UHGV virus genome: UHGV-0117379
DNA: 35,783 nucleotides
Reading direction: 5' to 3' (one strand)
DNA from: a virus
The notes beneath the pieces were generated by a model. The model saw only the letters and a program-made list of their open reading frames with translations. It searched no databases and had not been told where the DNA came from. Within the stretch, counting starts at the first letter, position 1. Each line of letters begins with the position of its first letter. The position numbers and the translations under genes were made by a program. Shown one piece after another: positions 1,977 to 12,347 of the stretch.

Positions 1977-2168
1977 TTATCGTGAGTTTTTAGTACAGAT
2001 TTTTTTGGATTTACTAATAGTTCCATCATTGCAAACGAATTTGCCATCTGAGGTACAGTGAGAAACACCTCCCTTTTTCCCTGAGCAGGGATAATTTCTA
2101 GCATAGGTAGTTAGTGGGTTTAATAACAAAGAACATGACAAAACCACAAAAAATACCTTACCAAGCAT
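1977..2168 (-). CDS. Small secreted cysteine-rich protein (63 aa), unknown function
   Basis: ATG at 2168 with GGGAGGA RBS; N-terminal signal-peptide-like hydrophobic stretch [23 protein letters not shown]; mature part has 6 Cys; AT-rich; sits between cI and int on the same strand. Confidence 0.6.
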
Positions 2169-2183: not shown

Positions 2184-2840
2184 CTATTTAACATACTTGA
2201 CTGTTAAACTTATAATTTTACCAATTATTTCAATGTCTTCTATCTTGCATTCGAAGGCTCTGTTTCCACCCTCGACGAAGATTCTTCCACCGGGTAAACG
2301 AGTAATGTCACGGATCGTTATTTCGCCATCAATACTTATTACCCATTTACCATCACGTATATCATCAAATTCTTTATCACAAATAAATTCAGAATTGTTA
2401 TCTGTGATGACAAAAGGTTTTTTAAACGTAGAGGGTAGAAATCCCTTATCAAAAATATAAAAACCGTCTTTCTGCAATGCTCCATCAGACAATAAATATT
2501 TTTCTACTTCTATAGTATTTGTATTTGCTGATGCTTGCTTTGAACCATGCCCTGTTGTTAGCCAATTAAGCGAGGTGCCCGTTTCAAGGGCGCACTGGAT
2601 TACCCAATCTGCTGGAAAAATATCACGCATATAGCGCGTTGCCATGGTGCTCTTAGAAACACCTAAATGATCACAGAGAGCCTGACGAGTACCGAACCCA
2701 TATGCTTCAACTAAACGTTCTATGGCTTTCTTACCGCCGCTATTGAAATCCACAAGTCCTCCAAAGAAATCCAAAATTCGTTGACAGATTCCAAAAGCGA
2801 TCTTAAAGTTGAACCAGAAGTGTTCTTTTGGAGCCTTCAC
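2184..2840 (-). CDS. cI: Phage CI-type repressor (186 CI-like, HTH N-terminal domain)
   Basis: HTH-like segment LGVSKSTMATRYMRD; position and orientation match the P2/186 immunity repressor, divergent from apl. The ORF starts at GTG 2840; true start uncertain. Confidence 0.7.
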   Translation of the reverse strand: MKAPKEHFWFNFKIAFGICQRILDFFGGLVDFNSGGKKAIERLVEAYGFGTRQALCDHLGVSKSTMATRYMRDIFPADWVIQCALETGTSLNWLTTGHGSKQASANTNTIEVEKYLLSDGALQKDGFYIFDKGFLPSTFKKPFVITDNNSEFICDKEFDDIRDGKWVISIDGEITIRDITRLPGGRIFVEGGNRAFECKIEDIEIIGKIISLTVKYVK

Positions 2841-5266: not shown

Positions 5267-6120
5267 GCACCATCCTGAAATGGGCGGGTAATAAAACCAC
5301 CATTATGTCCGAACTGAAAAAATACCTTCCTGCTGGCACGCGACTGGTTGAACCTTTCGCGGGTTCTTGTGCTGTGATGATGGAGACGGATTACCCCAGC
5401 TATCTGGTTGCGGATATTAATCCTGATTTAATCAACCTCTATAAAAAGGTTGCTGCTGATTGTGAGGCGTTTATATCTCGTGCCAGAGCTTTATTTGAGG
5501 AAGCAAACAGAGAGGTGGCTTATTACAACATAAGGCAGGAGTTTAATTACTCCACTGAAATTACTGATTTCATGAAAGCGGTATATTTTCTGTATCTCAA
5601 TCGTCATGGTTACCGTGGGCTATGTCGCTATAACAAGAGCGGGTATTTCAACATTCCCTACGGTAATTATAAAAATCCGTATTTCCCTGAAAAAGAAATT
5701 CGCGCATTTGCAGAGAAAGCCCAGCGGGCAACGTTTATCTGCGCCAGCTTTGATGAAACGCTGGCGATGTTGAAGGCGGGGGATGTGGTGTATTGCGATC
5801 CGCCTTATGACGGTACGTTTTCCGGCTATCACACTGATGGCTTCACTGAAGATGACCAGTATCACCTGGCATCCGTTCTTGAACATCGATCATCTGAAGG
5901 TCATCCGGTCATTGTTTCTAACAGTGACACATCCCTGATCCGTTCGCTGTATCGCAATTTTACTCACCACTACATCAAGGCAAAACGCAGCATCGGCGTG
6001 GCAGCTGGTGAGAGTAAATCTGCAACAGAAATCATCGCTGTTTCCGGGCCGCGCTGCTGGGTAGGATTTGATCCTTCGCGTGGCGTGGATTGTTCCGTCG
6101 TGTACGGAGTGCGTGCATGA
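5263..6120 (+). CDS. dam: DNA adenine methyltransferase (Dam family, N6-adenine)
   Basis: N-terminal LKWAGNK...PFAGS AdoMet motif and catalytic DPPY motif ([10 protein letters not shown]); ATG 5263 overlaps the previous stop; AGGAGGTG RBS. Confidence 0.85.
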
Positions 6121-8531
6121 GCCATGCTGATATGAACAACTGCAGCGGCTTTAACGAGGTCGCCGCAGCATTCTCATGGAACAGCCCGAAAAAGGCCATT
6201 AACCCTTATCTGGACCCGGCGGAAGTTGCGCCGGTTTCTGCGCTTTCAAACCTGATCACTCTGTACGCTGCCGATAACGAGCAGGAACAACTGCGCCGCG
6301 AGGCACTGAGTGATCAGGTCTGGGAGCGTTATTTCTTTAATGAATCCCGTGATCCTGTCCAACGCGAAATGGAGCAGGATAAGCTAATTAGCCGGGCAAA
6401 GCTGGCGCATGAGCAGCAGCGTTTTAATCCAGACATGGCCATTCTGGCGGACGTCAACGCCCAGCCTTCCCATATCAGCAAGCCGCTGATGCAACGTATT
6501 AAATACTTCAGCAGCCTGGGCAGGCCAAAGGCTTATTCCCGCTATTTGCGTGAGACGATTAAGCCATGCCTGGAACGACTGGAGCATGTACGCGACAGTC
6601 AGCTATCCACTTCTTTTCGCTTTATGGCAAGCCATGAAGGGCTGGACGGCCTGCTGATCCTGCCTGAAATGAGTCAGGATCAGGTGAAACGCCTGTCCAC
6701 CTTGGTAGCTGCGCATATGAGCATGTGCCTTGATACAGCTTGTGGCGATTTGTATGCCACCGATGATGTTACGCCAGAAGAAATCCGCAAGACATGGGAA
6801 AAGGTGGCAGCGGAAACCCTGCGTCTGGATGTTATCCCGCCTGCGTTTGAGCAACTCCGTCGGAAAAGAAACCGCCGTAAACCCGTGCCTTATGAACTCA
6901 TTCCTGGTTCGCTGGCGCGTATGTTATGCGCCGACTGGTGGTATCGGAAATTATGGAAGATGCGTTGCGAATGGCGGGAAGAGCAGTTGCGTGCTGTTTG
7001 CCTGGTCAGCAAAAAAGCATCTCCCTATGTCAGCTATGAAGCCGTGATGCATAAACGTGAGCAGCGCCGTAAGTCGCTGGAGTTTTTCCGTTCTCATGAA
7101 CTGGTGAACGAAGACGGCGACACGCTGGATATGGAAGACGTGGTAAACGCCAGCAGCAGCAACCCTGCGCATCGCCGCAATGAGATGATGGCCTGTGTTA
7201 AAGGTCTGGAGCTTATCGCGGAAATGCGCGGTGACTGCGCCGTTTTCTACACCATCACCTGTCCGTCACGTTTCCATTCCACGCTAAATAACGGCAGGCC
7301 CAACCCGACCTGGACAAATGCGACGGTAAGACAAAGCAGTGATTATCTGGTCGGTATGTTTGCTGCATTTCGTAAGGCGATGCACAAAGCCGGATTACGC
7401 TGGTATGGCGTGCGGGTGGCTGAGCCGCATCATGACGGTACAGTTCACTGGCACCTGTTGTGTTTTATGCGCAAAAAAGATCGCCGCGCCATTACTGCTT
7501 TGTTGCGTAAGTTTGCCATTCGTGAAGACCGCGAGGAGCTGGGTAATAACACGGAACCACGCTTTAAGTCTGAGCTGATAAACCCGCGCAAAGGTACGCC
7601 AACAAGCTACATCGCGAAATACATCAGTAAGAACATTGACGGGCGTGGTCTGGCTGGCGAGATCAGCAAGGAAACGGGTAAATCCCTGCGTGATAACGCC
7701 GAATACGTTAATGCCTGGGCGTCTCTGCATCGTGTTCAGCAATTCCGCTTCTTTGGCATTCCGGGGCGTCAGGCTTACCGTGAACTGCGATTGCTGGCTG
7801 GTCAGGCGGCAAGGCAACAGGGGGACAAAAAAGCAGGTGCGCCGGTACTGGATAACCCGCGCCTTGATGCCATCCTGGCTGCCGCTGATGCTGGCTGTTT
7901 TGCCACCTACATCATGAAGCAGGGCGGCGTACTGGTTCCCCGCAAATATCACCTCATCAGAACCGCTTATGAAATCAACGAAGAGCCGACCGCCTATGGC
8001 GATCACGGTATTCGTATTTATGGCATCTGGTCACCCATTGCAGAGGGCAAGATCTGCACTCATGCGGTGAAGTGGAAAATGGTTCGTAAGGCCGTTGACA
8101 TTCAGGAGGCGGCAGCCGACCAGGGCGCTTGCGCCCCTTGGACTCGTGGCAATAACTGTCCCCTTGCTGAAAATTTGAACCAACAAGGGAAAGACAAATC
8201 AGCTGATGGGGATACCAGAACGGAGATCACCCGCATGGATGACAAGGAGTTGCACGATTACCTGCACAGTATGAGCAAAAAAGAGCGCCGGGAACTGGCA
8301 GCAAGGTTACGCCTGGTGAAACCGAAATGGCGTAAAGACTACAAACAGCGAATTACAGAGCATCAGCGTCAGCAGCTCGTCTATGAACTGAAGTCCAGAG
8401 GATTTGATGGCAGCGAGAAAGAGGTCGATCTGCTCCTTCGCGGTGGCAGTATTCCGTCAGGAGCAGGCCTGCGTATCTTCTATCGGAACCAGCGTTTGCA
8501 GGAAGATGATAAGTGGCGGAACCTGTATTAA
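6117..8531 (+). CDS. A: Replication initiation endonuclease (P2 gpA-like, rolling-circle HUH type)
   Basis: ATG 6117 overlaps the dam stop; HUH-like motif HWHLLCF and paired-tyrosine motif [10 protein letters not shown]; about 800 aa, at the P2 gpA position. Confidence 0.85.
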
Positions 8532-8623
8532 TTACGCGGGTTAACAATTCGTGCTCTTAATAATACCAGGCATATCAGGCTGATGAACGTAAAAAAACGT
8601 TTTACATCAGTAAGATTATTATA

Positions 8624-8643
8624 TACTGTAAATATAAACAGTG
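8624..8643 (+). promoter_or_regulatory. LexA (SOS) box TACTGTAAATATAAACAGTG overlapping a putative promoter
   Basis: CTGT-N8-ACAG with AT-rich spacer at 8626-8641; about 45 bp upstream of the ATG at 8685; candidate -35 TTTTAC (8600-8605) and -10 TATACT (8622-8627). Confidence 0.6.
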
Positions 8644-8684
8644 GCTATACATACAGTGTTGCGTGTGGTGTCATAGGAGGAAAG

Positions 8685-8873
8685 ATGCAGGACTATTTTT
8701 TGGAGTCTTTGAAGCTCCAGCGCATTGATTTTTTTCTTAAGCTTGTAGCGGCTAGTGAGTGTAGTGATGAAGAGAAGGGGCTGGCTTTGCAATGGGTTTC
8801 TGAACTGACAGATGAACTCATGGCAAAAATCAGAACCCACGAATACAACCGCTCAATGGATGTCATCAGCTGA
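8685..8873 (+). CDS. Hypothetical small protein (62 aa), first gene of the LexA-box unit
   Basis: ATG 8685 with AGGAGG RBS (track ORF starts upstream at 8583). Confidence 0.5.
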   Translation: MQDYFLESLKLQRIDFFLKLVAASECSDEEKGLALQWVSELTDELMAKIRTHEYNRSMDVIS

Positions 8874-8883
8874 GGTGACTTTT

Positions 8884-9117
8884 ATGCGCATTGAAATAAT
8901 GATCGATAAAGAGCAGAAGATTAGCCAGTCTACCCTGGACGCCCTTGAATCCGAGCTTTACCGCAATCTGCGCCCCCTGTATCCCAAGACGGCGATCCGC
9001 ATTCGCAAAGGCAGTGCCAACGGTATCGAGTTGACCGGCTTAAAACTTGATGAGGATAAGCAGCGGGTAATGGAAATTATGCAGCAGGTCTGGGAAGACG
9101 ACAGCTGGCTGCATTAG
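8884..9117 (+). CDS. DinI-family protein (Tum-like SOS module)
   Basis: ATG 8884 with GAGGTGA RBS; MRIEIMID...KQRVMEIMQQVWEDDSW resembles E. coli DinI (MRIEVTIAK...KQRISEILQETWE), recalled from memory. Confidence 0.75.
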   Translation: MRIEIMIDKEQKISQSTLDALESELYRNLRPLYPKTAIRIRKGSANGIELTGLKLDEDKQRVMEIMQQVWEDDSWLH

Positions 9118-9403
9118 CGAACGTTGCGGACGATAAAACTGGCTTTTACCGTCCGCAAGGTTGAACAACGAGCCGTGCGAGGCGTTAGAAATTGCCTTTG
9201 TTAGTGCCTGCTTCTCATAAGAGGCACTATATATGCTAAATGCAGTGGTTTAAGGCAGAAACATCTTGCGCGATTAGGGGCAATGAACTTAAGTTAAGTA
9301 ACGCAACCAACAGTTAAAACGGTTGTCTTAGTTATAAGGAACTTGCTGTTGTGGTTGCTGGTGACGAAGTGTACACTTCCGCGCCGTATAAGAAGGAGGG
9401 GTT

Positions 9404-9622
9404 ATGTCAAGTATCGCCGCATTGAAGCTGGGTAATCCAGTTGAACGTTTGGCACGGGTTCTGAAAGAGAACCAGGACAAGCTCAATCTGAGTAAAGATG
9501 GTTTTGTGTCCGTAGATTTGTCCAACGAAGAAGCTATGAAAGCCATCCGAGATCAGATGGATAAGCTTGAAGGCATCAAAACGAGCACTGTTAAAGCAAA
9601 ATATTATTACAGAACCCGATAA
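9404..9622 (+). CDS. Hypothetical small soluble protein (72 aa)
   Basis: ATG 9404 with AAGGAGGGG RBS; stop overlaps the next start (TAATG). Confidence 0.6.
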   Translation: MSSIAALKLGNPVERLARVLKENQDKLNLSKDGFVSVDLSNEEAMKAIRDQMDKLEGIKTSTVKAKYYYRTR

Positions 9623-10464
9623 TGGCAACATTACTTTTAGCAGTGATTTTGGTTAGTGGTTTTATATATGTAAACCTATCACTTTCAACACGTTATAGAT
9701 ATAAGCGTTCCAATGGCTGGGACGCTTATTTTTTTGTGGCTGCATGGGGAATTGTCTTTTTCCTCGCTGGCGGCTTCCTTACCTTCGCTCTTAACATCAG
9801 CGGTGGGTTTCGCTGGTTTTCTAATGCGCTGAATCTGACTCCAGACAGCTTTAACGGGATGTTATCCACCACAACCGATAAACCGCAGCGCATCAATGAA
9901 ATTAAGCAAATCGCGTGGGTTGTGATTTCAATAGTTCTCGCGGCGCTGTTCGGTTGGCTAAACAAACGCCGTACTTCAAAAGGGGATCGCCGTTGGGATG
10001 CACTGGCAAAGGCAGTGGGAAACAATGCTTTTGAATCGCTGCTCATGGAAGCATCAGCTCGCCAGTTTCCTATCATTGCTACACTTTCATCACGCAAAAT
10101 CTATGTAGGGCTGGTGACTTGCCCTGCGTTGGAAAATGGATTGTCGGAACACCTTGAAATTCTCCCCTTGCTGAGCGGATATCGTGATAAAGACGACCTA
10201 ACGATAAATATCACGACAAACTATCATCAGCACTATCTTGATAGCGGTGTTATCAATGGGATGTCGCGCCTGAATATCCAGGATTTCCGTGTGCTTCTCC
10301 CTAAAGATGAAGTTGAAACCATCTCGTTTTTTGATACTGAAACGTATAACAAATTTAAAGAAAACGAAGCGCGTGACCGGAAAGACTGCCGCAAGTTGGG
10401 TGGTAAAAAGCCATCCGCACGCAGGAGAAAGACTGCTGGCGACGCAGAGCAGGGTAGTGCATGA
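9622..10464 (+). CDS. Membrane protein with three predicted N-terminal TM helices, unknown function
   Basis: Hydrophobic segments LLLAVILVSGFIYV, AYFFVAAWGIVFFLAGGFLTFAL and IAWVVISIVLAALFGWL, then a roughly 170-aa soluble domain; AT-rich. Confidence 0.65.
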   Translation: MATLLLAVILVSGFIYVNLSLSTRYRYKRSNGWDAYFFVAAWGIVFFLAGGFLTFALNISGGFRWFSNALNLTPDSFNGMLSTTTDKPQRINEIKQIAWVVISIVLAALFGWLNKRRTSKGDRRWDALAKAVGNNAFESLLMEASARQFPIIATLSSRKIYVGLVTCPALENGLSEHLEILPLLSGYRDKDDLTINITTNYHQHYLDSGVINGMSRLNIQDFRVLLPKDEVETISFFDTETYNKFKENEARDRKDCRKLGGKKPSARRRKTAGDAEQGSA

Positions 10465-10512
10465 CTATGCTGCATGAATTTGCATGATCGTTTGAGGATC
10501 GTTTTAGCTCCG

Positions 10513-10537
10513 GCCCGCCAGTTCAGGCGGGCTTTTT
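10513..10537 (+). terminator. Rho-independent terminator (GCCCGC-loop-GCGGGC followed by TTTTT)
   Basis: Read directly: stem 10513-10518/10527-10532, T-run 10533-10537, about 50 nt after the membrane-protein stop. Confidence 0.6.
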
Positions 10538-10581
10538 CATATCTCATGCAGGTGCATGAAAACCACTACACAAAGCGGGCA

Positions 10582-10600
10582 GGCGTGGCGGGGATACGAG
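10582..10600. other. Putative cos cohesive-end sequence GGCGTGGCGGGGATACGAG
   Basis: First 13 nt identical to the P2/186 cohesive-end consensus GGCG(A/T)GGCGGGGAAAGCA as I remember it (15/19 to 186). Preceded by five copies of TGCATGA. Confidence 0.4.
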
Positions 10601-10665
10601 CGCGCGCTCATTACTTTTATAATTCTAGGGTTATAATACAGGGCTATCTTTCTAGGAGAAAACAC

Positions 10666-12318
10666 ATGTCCTTAGAGTTTATCAAAGAACAGTTGTCAGA
10701 TTTTATCTCATCTACAGAACCAGAAGTAATGGCTATACAGGGTGAATGGGGAATTGGTAAAACCTATACTTGGAATACGTTCCTAAAAGATAATAAAGAT
10801 AAGGTTGCATTTAATAGATATAGTTATGTCTCTCTTTTTGGTATAAATTCACTAGATTCTTTAAAGTATTCTATTTTTGAGAATGCAATTACAAAGGAAT
10901 ATATTGGAAATAAACCTGATTTGGAGACAGCAACAACAAACGCAAGTGGACTTTTTGAATCGTTTTCTCGAAAAGCCGCAGGTTTGTTAAAAGAAGCTCC
11001 TGTTGTAAAAAACTTCTCTACGACACTTGAAGCAATGTCATTTCTGACCGTTTCTAAAATGATTGTAGTAATAGATGACTTAGAAAGGCGTGGCAAAAAC
11101 TTAGATGTTAAAGATGTTTTAGGGCTAGTATCTCTATTAAAGGAGCAGAAGGATTGTAAGGTGGTTCTATTGCTTAACAATGGCACAGCTAGTATGGAGG
11201 ATTATTCTACTTATAAAGAAAAGGTCATTGATAGAGATATCACTTACAATCCAACACCAGAAGAATGCGCAGATATAGCCTATAAAGGTGATTTTCATGT
11301 TTATAACTTGTTAAGTAAATATTCCATTTCTTTAGGTATCAAGAATATTCGAATCTTAAAAAAGATAGAACGTTTTTTCGTGTCCTTAACACCAAATATT
11401 ATAGGTGATGTTGAGACAATTTCAAATGAAGTTGCGCATTCATTAACTCTGTATTGTTGGAGCCATTACGGATTTTCTCCAGAGGGAGATGTGCCATCAC
11501 TAGAATATATTAGGGGAGTGAGGAATATATATACTTATAATGACAAGGAAGAAGGCCATGAGAAAGTCTGGCTTAATACCTTGCTTAAATATGGATATAG
11601 AAAAACGAATGATCTTGATGAGGTTCTTATTGATATGGTTAGATATGGCTATCTTGATAAGAGCAGTTTCCAAAGACAAATAAGCCTAAGGAATGAGGAG
11701 ATTACGCGTGATAATAAACGAGGTTCCTTATCTGAGGCATGGCAGTTCTTTCATAATTCATTTGATGACAATCAAAATCAGGTTGTTGACAAGCTATATC
11801 AAGCGGTGGTTGATGGGATGAAGTATGTGACTCCAAGTGATTTAGATAATGTTGTCGGACTATATAGGGATTTCGGAGAGAATGCTAAGGCGAGTGAATT
11901 GATTGAACAGTTTATTAATTATGGTAACGATGCTCTAAAGGAATATGTTCAATCTATTTATGTGAATGTTCATCCCGTAAGAGATGCTGAGTTGTTGTCA
12001 AAAATTCAAGCCTATTCTAATATTATAAATATTGATGGTTCAATATATGATGTTCTTAAGAAATTATCAGGTCAGAATGGTTGGTCTGATAGACATGAGG
12101 AAATATTGGATGCTGCTTCAGTAGATGACTACTATCAATTATTTAAAAATGTCATTCTTGATGGTGGTGATTCAATAATAGCTACGGCGCTTAAATTCGG
12201 AAATTATAGTAATGGTTCTGATAGAATGAATCGTATAGGGAAAAAGGCAAGGGATGCCTTGATAAGAATTGGAGATGAATCGGCGATTAATAAAATACGT
12301 GTAAGGCGATTTTTGTGA
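10666..12318 (+). CDS. KAP-family P-loop NTPase (candidate defence cargo)
   Basis: ATG 10666 with AGGAG RBS (track ORF starts at 10474). Walker A GEWGIGKT and KAP-type Walker B VVIDDLERR; AT-rich; own TATAAT boxes (10618-10623, 10632-10637) and a downstream terminator. Confidence 0.75.
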   Translation: MSLEFIKEQLSDFISSTEPEVMAIQGEWGIGKTYTWNTFLKDNKDKVAFNRYSYVSLFGINSLDSLKYSIFENAITKEYIGNKPDLETATTNASGLFESFSRKAAGLLKEAPVVKNFSTTLEAMSFLTVSKMIVVIDDLERRGKNLDVKDVLGLVSLLKEQKDCKVVLLLNNGTASMEDYSTYKEKVIDRDITYNPTPEECADIAYKGDFHVYNLLSKYSISLGIKNIRILKKIERFFVSLTPNIIGDVETISNEVAHSLTLYCWSHYGFSPEGDVPSLEYIRGVRNIYTYNDKEEGHEKVWLNTLLKYGYRKTNDLDEVLIDMVRYGYLDKSSFQRQISLRNEEITRDNKRGSLSEAWQFFHNSFDDNQNQVVDKLYQAVVDGMKYVTPSDLDNVVGLYRDFGENAKASELIEQFINYGNDALKEYVQSIYVNVHPVRDAELLSKIQAYSNIINIDGSIYDVLKKLSGQNGWSDRHEEILDAASVDDYYQLFKNVILDGGDSIIATALKFGNYSNGSDRMNRIGKKARDALIRIGDESAINKIRVRRFL

Positions 12319-12325
12319 TTTTTAT

Positions 12326-12347
12326 AGGGGTGATTAACCCCTTTTTA
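12326..12347 (+). terminator. Stem-loop (GGGG-TGATTAA-CCCC) plus T-run between the convergent NTPase and portal genes
   Basis: Read directly from the sequence; short stem, so moderate confidence. Confidence 0.5.

Follow-up and report, generated by a model that had tools for sequence, protein, structure and literature searches.

The window, the whole 35,783-nucleotide stretch of DNA that was analysed, is a P2/186-like (Peduoviridae) prophage of 35.8 kb and a close relative of the E. coli HS prophage DuoHS and of Salmonella Fels-2. DuoHS shares 94–97% nucleotide identity with the window across most of its length, and the prophage looks complete, because its late region is 96–97% identical to recorded Klebsiella phages. 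Directly 3′ of replication gene A (6090–8531) lies a short operon on the plus strand, in a segment (8540–9400) with 99.3% identity to Klebsiella phage ST15-OXA48phi14.1. The promoter has a −35 hexamer TTTACA (8601–8606), located 17 nt upstream of a putative −10 hexamer TACTGT (8624–8629), which is at the same time the left half of an SOS (LexA) box, TACTGTAAATATAAACAGTG (box 1, 8624–8643). A second box, CAGTGGCTATACATACAGTG (box 2, 8639–8658), overlaps the first by 5 nt. The first gene, tumA (8685–8873), encodes a protein of 62 residues and has the Shine-Dalgarno sequence AGGAGG (8675–8680) placed 4 nt before its ATG at 8685, an arrangement that is conserved in relatives. The second gene, tumB (8884–9117), encodes a DinI-family protein of 77 residues, is separated from tumA by 10 nt and is read in a different frame; its Shine-Dalgarno sequence GAGGTG (8872–8877), read directly from the sequence, overlaps the tumA stop codon. 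The 3′ end of the operon is marked by a conserved hairpin (9124–9158, plus strand) and an invariant 30-mer (9159–9188, plus strand). A preliminary description of the locus, made from the sequence alone, had reported a near-consensus SOS box overlapping a promoter, a 62-residue reading frame downstream of it and a 77-residue DinI-like reading frame, and all of these are present.

The module is found in many enterobacteria. A close copy is carried by 1125 of 5426 complete E. coli genomes (about a fifth), and homologues of tumA were collected from 33 loci in different enterobacterial species, the genera including Escherichia, Citrobacter, Enterobacter, Kluyvera, Raoultella, Serratia, Pantoea, Erwinia and Tatumella. 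Synteny is kept in 28 intact loci, where tumA is the first gene behind an SOS-box promoter, follows gene A and occurs in a prophage with a 186-type CI repressor. Since tumA is still a "hypothetical protein" in RefSeq, transfer of the name would be useful for annotation.

Both products are related to Tum of phage 186, although to very different degrees. TumB matches the Pfam family DinI (PF06183) over profile positions 1–63 of 63 (E = 1.4e-24; 86.6 bits, cut-off 24.2) and aligns over its full length with residues 71–145 of 186 Tum (about 40–41% identity, E = 1e-24). Its start coincides with the internal GTG start in 186 of "truncated Tum", a product annotated as an SOS-induction modulator. The identity of TumB is 86% to PSP3 TumB and 87% to the Fels-2 DinI-family protein. 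A full-length alignment is also obtained with E. coli DinI (PDB 1GHH, 8.7e-10), including the acidic C-terminal W-E-D-D-S-W region. The score of TumB against NCBIfam NF007893, the equivalog model for chromosomal DinI, is 54.2 bits and lies below the cut-off of 111, so that TumB is a phage DinI-like paralogue and not the host DinI.

TumA is identical at 61 of 62 residues to the E. coli HS tum product (ECHS_RS04495) and, likewise at 61 of 62, to Fels-2 STM2728. BLASTP gave no match between TumA and 186 Tum, whose N-terminal half is about 20% identical to it and is detected by profiles only, and the identity with PSP3 TumA is only about 22%; the case for homology with Tum therefore rests on profiles and synteny. 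TumA matches its own family phrog_698 at 3.6e-38, and the N-terminal half of 186 Tum matches the same profile at 5.9e-6 and in register (residues 6–44 to profile positions 6–44). Two further profiles are shared, phrog_8554 (2.4e-8 for TumA, 3.4e-12 for the Tum N-terminal half) and phrog_1993 (2e-3 and 1.5e-23, respectively). When 29 distinct TumA sequences were combined into a local HMM, it aligned to residues 1–47 of 186 Tum and to a Yersinia "tum protein". By these profile comparisons, TumA appears to be a distant homologue of the N-terminal half of 186 Tum. The single-sequence AlphaFold prediction for TumA is a two-helix hairpin (pLDDT 91.6). The preliminary description had proposed that a Tum-like module is split here over two reading frames, which should be recognizable by alignment to 186 Tum and by profile similarity to Tum or DinI. 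This proposal is borne out, directly for TumB, which corresponds to Tum 71–145, and through the PHROG links for TumA.

The split arrangement of tumA and tumB has already been described in PSP3 and Fels-2, where tum is divided in two and the antirepressor is encoded by the upstream gene (Lemire et al. 2011). The PSP3 record annotates tumA as "similar to 5' end 186 tum; UV induction of prophage" and tumB as "similar to dinI and 3' end of 186 tum". In PSP3 and in Fels-2 (STM2728 and STM2726.1), the two genes are placed under an SOS box after gene A, as in the window. Phage 186 has an operon in the same position directly after gene A, a LexA-repressed promoter (p95) with the −10 hexamer TACTGT inside the LexA box, a CI repressor of the same type and a DinI-like part that is also translated alone from an internal start. 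However, in 186 both parts are fused in one protein of 146 residues, tum is followed by a canonical partial terminator (t95a), and the downstream orf97 is unrelated to the genes found in the window. The Gifsy antirepressors GfoA and GftA follow the same logic, in which a small SOS-induced antirepressor, transcribed together with a dinI homologue, acts against a non-cleavable repressor (Lemire et al. 2011). In those prophages the order is reversed, with dinI first, and the repressors are lambdoid.

The closest counterpart is the module of DuoHS, for which genetic evidence is available. Deletion of its tum gene, or a lexA(Ind-) background, abolishes mitomycin C lysis and virion formation (Phollow study, Nat Microbiol 2025, PMC12055606). 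The DuoHS tum gene encodes 62 residues and lies beside a DinI-like gene in the same gene order as in the window; the promoter and double operator are almost identical, and the CI repressors are 87% identical. DuoHS differs in its host and in the cargo genes downstream of tumB, and it is without the hairpin and the invariant 30-mer after tumB. By analogy with this nearly identical gene, TumA is probably needed for SOS induction of the present prophage, and by proxy of the DuoHS lexA(Ind-) result, its promoter is probably repressed by LexA and derepressed by damage.

The region is thus very probably the SOS operon of a P2/186-like prophage, held by LexA, in which TumA inactivates CI and TumB modulates the SOS response. 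In the lysogen, LexA would occupy the two overlapping boxes (8624–8658), and the tumA promoter would stay shut, its −10 hexamer and the region where transcription starts lying under the boxes. After DNA damage, activated RecA would promote LexA self-cleavage, the promoter would fire and the two small proteins would be made. TumA, with its predicted helical hairpin, would then bind the 186-type CI and block operator binding, and the loss of CI would derepress the early lytic promoter and induce the prophage. TumB would bind RecA filaments and tune the SOS signal, in line with the annotation of the C-terminal portion of 186 Tum that is translated on its own; this action on RecA is proposed here by analogy. 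The interpretation offered in the preliminary description is supported by the analysis, and the arrangement itself was already known.

The presumed target of TumA is the product of cI (2184–2753, minus strand), an immunity repressor that is 33% identical to 186 CI (E = 9e-38) and for which a GTG start at 2753 is presumed from the DuoHS annotation. Direct binding of CI by an antirepressor of this kind has been shown only for 186 Tum (cited in Lemire et al. 2011), and contact between TumA and the present CI would follow that precedent. An alternative is that the module is SOS-regulated and TumA does not act on the resident CI, as a result of a mismatch produced by recombination or because its target is a different one; in that case the effect of the operon would be confined to tuning the SOS response of the host through TumB, without inducing the prophage. 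The comparison of TumA with whole CI sequences is consistent with such a mismatch. Among 28 loci, TumA identity and whole-CI identity are uncorrelated (Spearman −0.055, Mantel p 0.70), and identical TumA proteins are found beside CIs that are only 36% identical. Since TumA identity does not track whole-CI identity, this particular pairing is supported mainly by the close DuoHS pair, which was verified experimentally and is nearly the same (87% identity in CI overall, with residues 150–217 identical).

The missing correlation is partly explained by the different behaviour of the two CI domains. With a single exception, phages with this type of TumA have an N-terminal helix-turn-helix domain of 65 residues that is 61–88% identical to that of the window; in 186 and PSP3 the value is only 40–51%. 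The C-terminal domain is 23–41% identical in nearly all phages with this TumA type. Fels-2 has the same pattern, the identity of its CI being about 71% for the N-terminal and about 25% for the C-terminal domain, with 38% for the whole protein. TumA identity rises with that of the CI N-terminal domain (Spearman 0.30; p about 0.01 in a Mantel test) and is uncorrelated with that of the C-terminal domain (0.01, p 0.43). This N-terminal correlation hints that TumA may contact the DNA-binding domain of CI. The single exception is a Pantoea stewartii locus, in which a window-type TumA (84% identity) is combined with a 186-like CI that shares only 38% identity with the window's in the N-terminal domain; this locus speaks for a mismatch. 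The conservation of the N-terminal domain in every other phage of this TumA type, its correlation with TumA identity and the DuoHS pair nevertheless make a failure of TumA to act on the resident CI of this prophage very improbable, as does the loss of tumB from about a third of the loci that keep tumA. The idea that TumA mimics part of CI was dropped, since BLASTP of TumA against the window's own CI gave nothing useful. Inactivation of CI by TumA remains the preferred reading.

It is also conceivable that induction is brought about by TumB, for example through RecA, and that tumA is an unrelated small leader or accessory gene. Of the two products, TumB alone matches a curated family; for TumA, Pfam, NCBIfam and PADLOC gave none, and no solved relative was found for it in the PDB. 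However, the deletion that abolishes induction of DuoHS removed the 62-residue ECHS_RS04495 and not the DinI-like gene, and in PSP3 it is the upstream gene that is reported to carry the antirepressor activity. The distribution of the genes points the same way. tumB is absent from about 11 of the 33 genome loci that keep tumA, which makes tumA the selected core of the operon, and 5 of 80 viral contigs have the 3′ element immediately behind tumA, without an intervening tumB. TumA is also nearly invariant across genera and under very strong purifying selection. TumB as the effector is therefore a very remote prospect, and the assignment of antirepressor function to TumA is preferred.

The evidence that the operon belongs to the LexA regulon begins with box 1, which has three mismatches to the perfect palindrome TACTGTATATATATACAGTA and intact CTG-N10-CAG cores. 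No other site in the 35.8-kb window comes within three mismatches of the palindromic LexA consensus, and the looser pattern CTGT-N8-ACAG also occurs once in the window, at the box 1 site, with 0.35 occurrences expected by chance. CTG-N10-CAG is present at the equivalent position upstream of the tumA homologue in 30 of 33 loci; the loci without it include one that is cut by a contig end (L008) and a decayed remnant with a truncated tumA (L036). In the record of phage ST15-OXA48phi14.1, the CAG of box 1 is changed to CAT. The promoter was further compared among 26 distinct orthologous sequences, taken from loci that also carry the second SOS box. The −35 hexamer (97% conserved) and the CTGT and ACAG cores are 97–99% conserved, in contrast to 56–64% for the spacer and the downstream leader, which argues that box 1 is under selection and is no chance palindrome. 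The −10 assignment of TACTGT is proposed by likeness to the annotated p95 promoter of 186, which has the same geometry. A generic promoter scan of the area gave a minus-strand site only; the consensus scanner missed the tumA promoter because TACTGT fits only 3 of the 6 positions of TATAAT. A fortuitous palindrome beside a promoter that LexA does not control might be entertained in so AT-rich a region (40% GC) and in view of that scan, but its probability is close to nil, since none of 100 shuffles yielded a comparable site, the CTG and CAG cores are invariant among relatives while the centre of the box varies, the box is degenerate in the very remnant in which tumA is truncated, and lexA(Ind-) blocks induction in DuoHS. 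Near the consensus, overlapping the promoter and conserved in orthologues, 8624–8643 has the sequence properties of an operator of the LexA regulon, and control of the tum promoter by LexA is the reading adopted here.

The second box was overlooked in the preliminary description. Its CAG follows the CAG of box 1 by exactly 15 nt, and its ACAG is 99% conserved in the 26 promoters, compared with 56% for the leader behind it. The left half has GTG in place of CTG, and there are six mismatches to the consensus; occupancy of box 2 would depend on cooperative binding with box 1. The two boxes form a dual operator of the colicin type. A BLAST search with the Fels-2 version of the operator matched 1123 plasmid records, and among the matches listed the identity was 85–91% over ~42 nt; these sites precede colicin E1 (cea) and a tRNase-domain bacteriocin of Klebsiella, with a further one on Yersinia pestis pPCP1. 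The box pair of about 36 nt aligns without gaps and with high identity to these colicin-type operators (cea, the klebicin-type bacteriocin and pPCP1), which share with the window the 15-nt distance between the CAGs, the GTG in the left half of box 2 and the CAGTGG junction. The overlap, the fixed 15-nt offset and the junction are thus all present, and the arrangement is common to the 26 related promoters. The two kinds of promoter differ in that box 1 overlaps the −10 hexamer in the window, while in ColE1 the spacing from TTGACA to the boxes is 12 nt longer, and the genes under the colicin operators are unrelated to the tum genes. The double boxes of colicin promoters bind two LexA dimers cooperatively, which leads to very tight repression (PMC2994835), and by this likeness the phage operator may also bind two dimers, with LexA on both boxes in the present host. 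Only one SOS box is present in phage 186, in PSP3, in a Yersinia phage and in a Pantoea/Erwinia group. No link between tum promoters and colicin-type boxes was found in the literature searched.

The 3′ end of the operon carries a further conserved element. The hairpin (9124–9158) has a fold z of −3.6 and no U-tract behind it, and it is followed by the 30-mer GGTTGAACAACGAG-N4-GCGAGGCGTTAG (9159–9188), in which the bracketing blocks are invariant alignment columns. Among 19 copies, pairing is maintained by two-sided changes at 9 of the 23 predicted pairs, and 76 of 80 viral contigs have a stable hairpin (59 distinct sequences). Exact matches to the 30-mer were found in at least 120 viral contigs, and wherever the flanking matches of a contig were informative, gene A stood on one side of it and the portal gene on the other. 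The 30-mer comes directly after tumB in 51 of the 80 contigs. In 186 the element follows orf97, about 40 nt before t95b; it is present twice in PSP3, and it stands after tumA where tumB is missing. Similarity to many phages stops exactly at 9188, so that the variable cargo region has its left border at the element. No canonical intrinsic terminator was found after tumB, which leaves the extent of the operon uncertain. A search of Rfam gave no family in the window and none for the 3′ element; a minus-strand match to Ysr100 (E = 0.44) was discarded, since it was not recovered at E ≤ 1 in a narrower stretch. A relationship to integron attC sites was also considered and rejected, as its core motifs differ from GTTRRRY/RYYYAAC and the window showed no IntI-type integrase.

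At 9404–10464, downstream of the element, a gene for a 72-residue protein and a gene for a 280-residue membrane protein are closed by a good terminator (10512–10533). The possibility that the operon keeps an equivalent of orf97 was rejected; the 280-residue protein is no homologue of 186 Orf97 or of Fels-2 STM2726, and none of the downstream cargo proteins is related to 186 Orf97. The terminator is followed by an AT-rich island (about 33% GC) which carries the gene for a KAP-family NTPase with a match (5.7e-28) to PDC-S49, a defence candidate of PADLOC.

Because the biology of SOS induction through Tum is established, the present analysis adds no new principle to it; the double operator, the pattern that connects TumA with the N-terminal domain of CI, and the 3′ element are minor additions. 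That TumA is a generic antirepressor for the conserved N-terminal domain of CI and, jointly, that the hairpin and 30-mer are an undescribed cis element is a tentative proposal, which we consider possible rather than probable. If it holds, a single TumA made in the SOS response could also induce other P2-like prophages of different immunity in the same host, the colicin-type double LexA operator would set a high threshold for induction, and the 3′ element could be an RNA 3′-end or processing signal, or a junction site at the left border of a cargo and defence hotspot of P2-like phages. These side observations would bear on induction thresholds, cross-induction and cargo exchange. The module as a whole probably sets when the prophage exits the chromosome after DNA damage, for example under fluoroquinolones or mitomycin C.

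The operator of tumA, the gene for the 62-aa antirepressor homologue, has two overlapping SOS boxes in the colicin-type arrangement (the second at 8639-8658 in the window; alignment A4), which differs from the single SOS box of phages 186 and PSP3. Gap-free, high-identity alignments pair it with the ColE1 cea operator, that of a klebicin-type bacteriocin and the one on pPCP1; the BLAST matches are 85-91% identical over ~42 nt. No paper connecting a tum operator with the colicin-type double box was found in the searchable literature. The counterpart of SOS box 1 (8624-8643 in the window) lies at 7249-7268 in Klebsiella phage ST15-OXA48phi14.1 (L001), where CAT replaces the essential CAG of this box in a record that is otherwise 99.3% identical; this substitution would be expected to weaken the repression of tumA by LexA.

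The presumed target of TumA is the 186-type immunity repressor CI (2184-2753, minus strand), which was compared with the CI genes from 31 related loci. The N-terminal domain of CI is fairly conserved, with 61-88% identity to that of the window in all but one of the phages that have this nearly invariant TumA, and their C-terminal domain is just 23-41% identical to that of the window. The identity of TumA correlates with the N-terminal domain of CI only. An exception is Pantoea stewartii (L027), whose CI is 186-like. Between cI and the integrase gene lies a cysteine-rich ORF of 63 aa whose N-terminus is hydrophobic (1977-2168, minus strand; phrog_6000), and the E. coli HS prophage DuoHS, a close relative, has a small hypothetical gene at this position. 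In the left flank, a TetR-family, RcdA-like regulator is encoded at 23-613; this gene is too diverged to give a blastn match to E. coli HS. Segment 648-779, however, matches the E. coli HS sequence immediately 3' of rcdA, the place of DuoHS integration, and so the two elements seem, from this sequence match, to have a common attachment site.

The gene tumB, which encodes the 77-aa DinI-family protein, is dispensed with in about one third of the related genome loci, which keep tumA and its SOS box (listed as such are L011, L015, L021, L025, L029-L036 and L038), and in 5 of 80 viral contigs. In the window, tumB is followed by a conserved element of ~65 nt (9124-9188), a covarying hairpin with an invariant GGTTGAACAACGAG-N4-GCGAGGCGTTAG, which belongs to no Rfam family. 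One copy is found in phage 186 (L003, ~8345-8412) and two in PSP3 (L005, ~7058-7125 and ~7462-7530), and exact matches occur in at least 120 viral contigs. The element is located after tumB, after orf97 in 186, or after tumA where tumB is missing; in contigs with identifiable flanking genes the order is gene A, element, portal gene. In L020, a deletion truncates tumB and fuses its CCGCAAGG to the identical octamer of the element.

The 3' end of the element is the exact point where similarity between the phages stops. Beyond it, a 72-aa gene (phrog_9843) and a gene for a 280-aa predicted membrane protein (phrog_3630), with coupled stop and start codons, occupy 9404-10464; they are unrelated to 186 orf97. 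As there is no terminator between tumB and this pair, both genes may be transcribed by read-through from the SOS promoter. An AT-rich island (~33% GC) then encodes a KAP-family P-loop NTPase with matches to phrog_4740 and, at 5.7e-28, to PDC-S49, a defence candidate in PADLOC. Since a strong terminator (10512-10533) falls within the long ORF call of 10474-12318, the gene probably starts at the ATG at 10666, and it ends at a terminator (12326-12342) adjoining the portal gene. The same position in ST15-OXA48phi14.1 carries a TIR-domain gene, and the position is a cargo hotspot.
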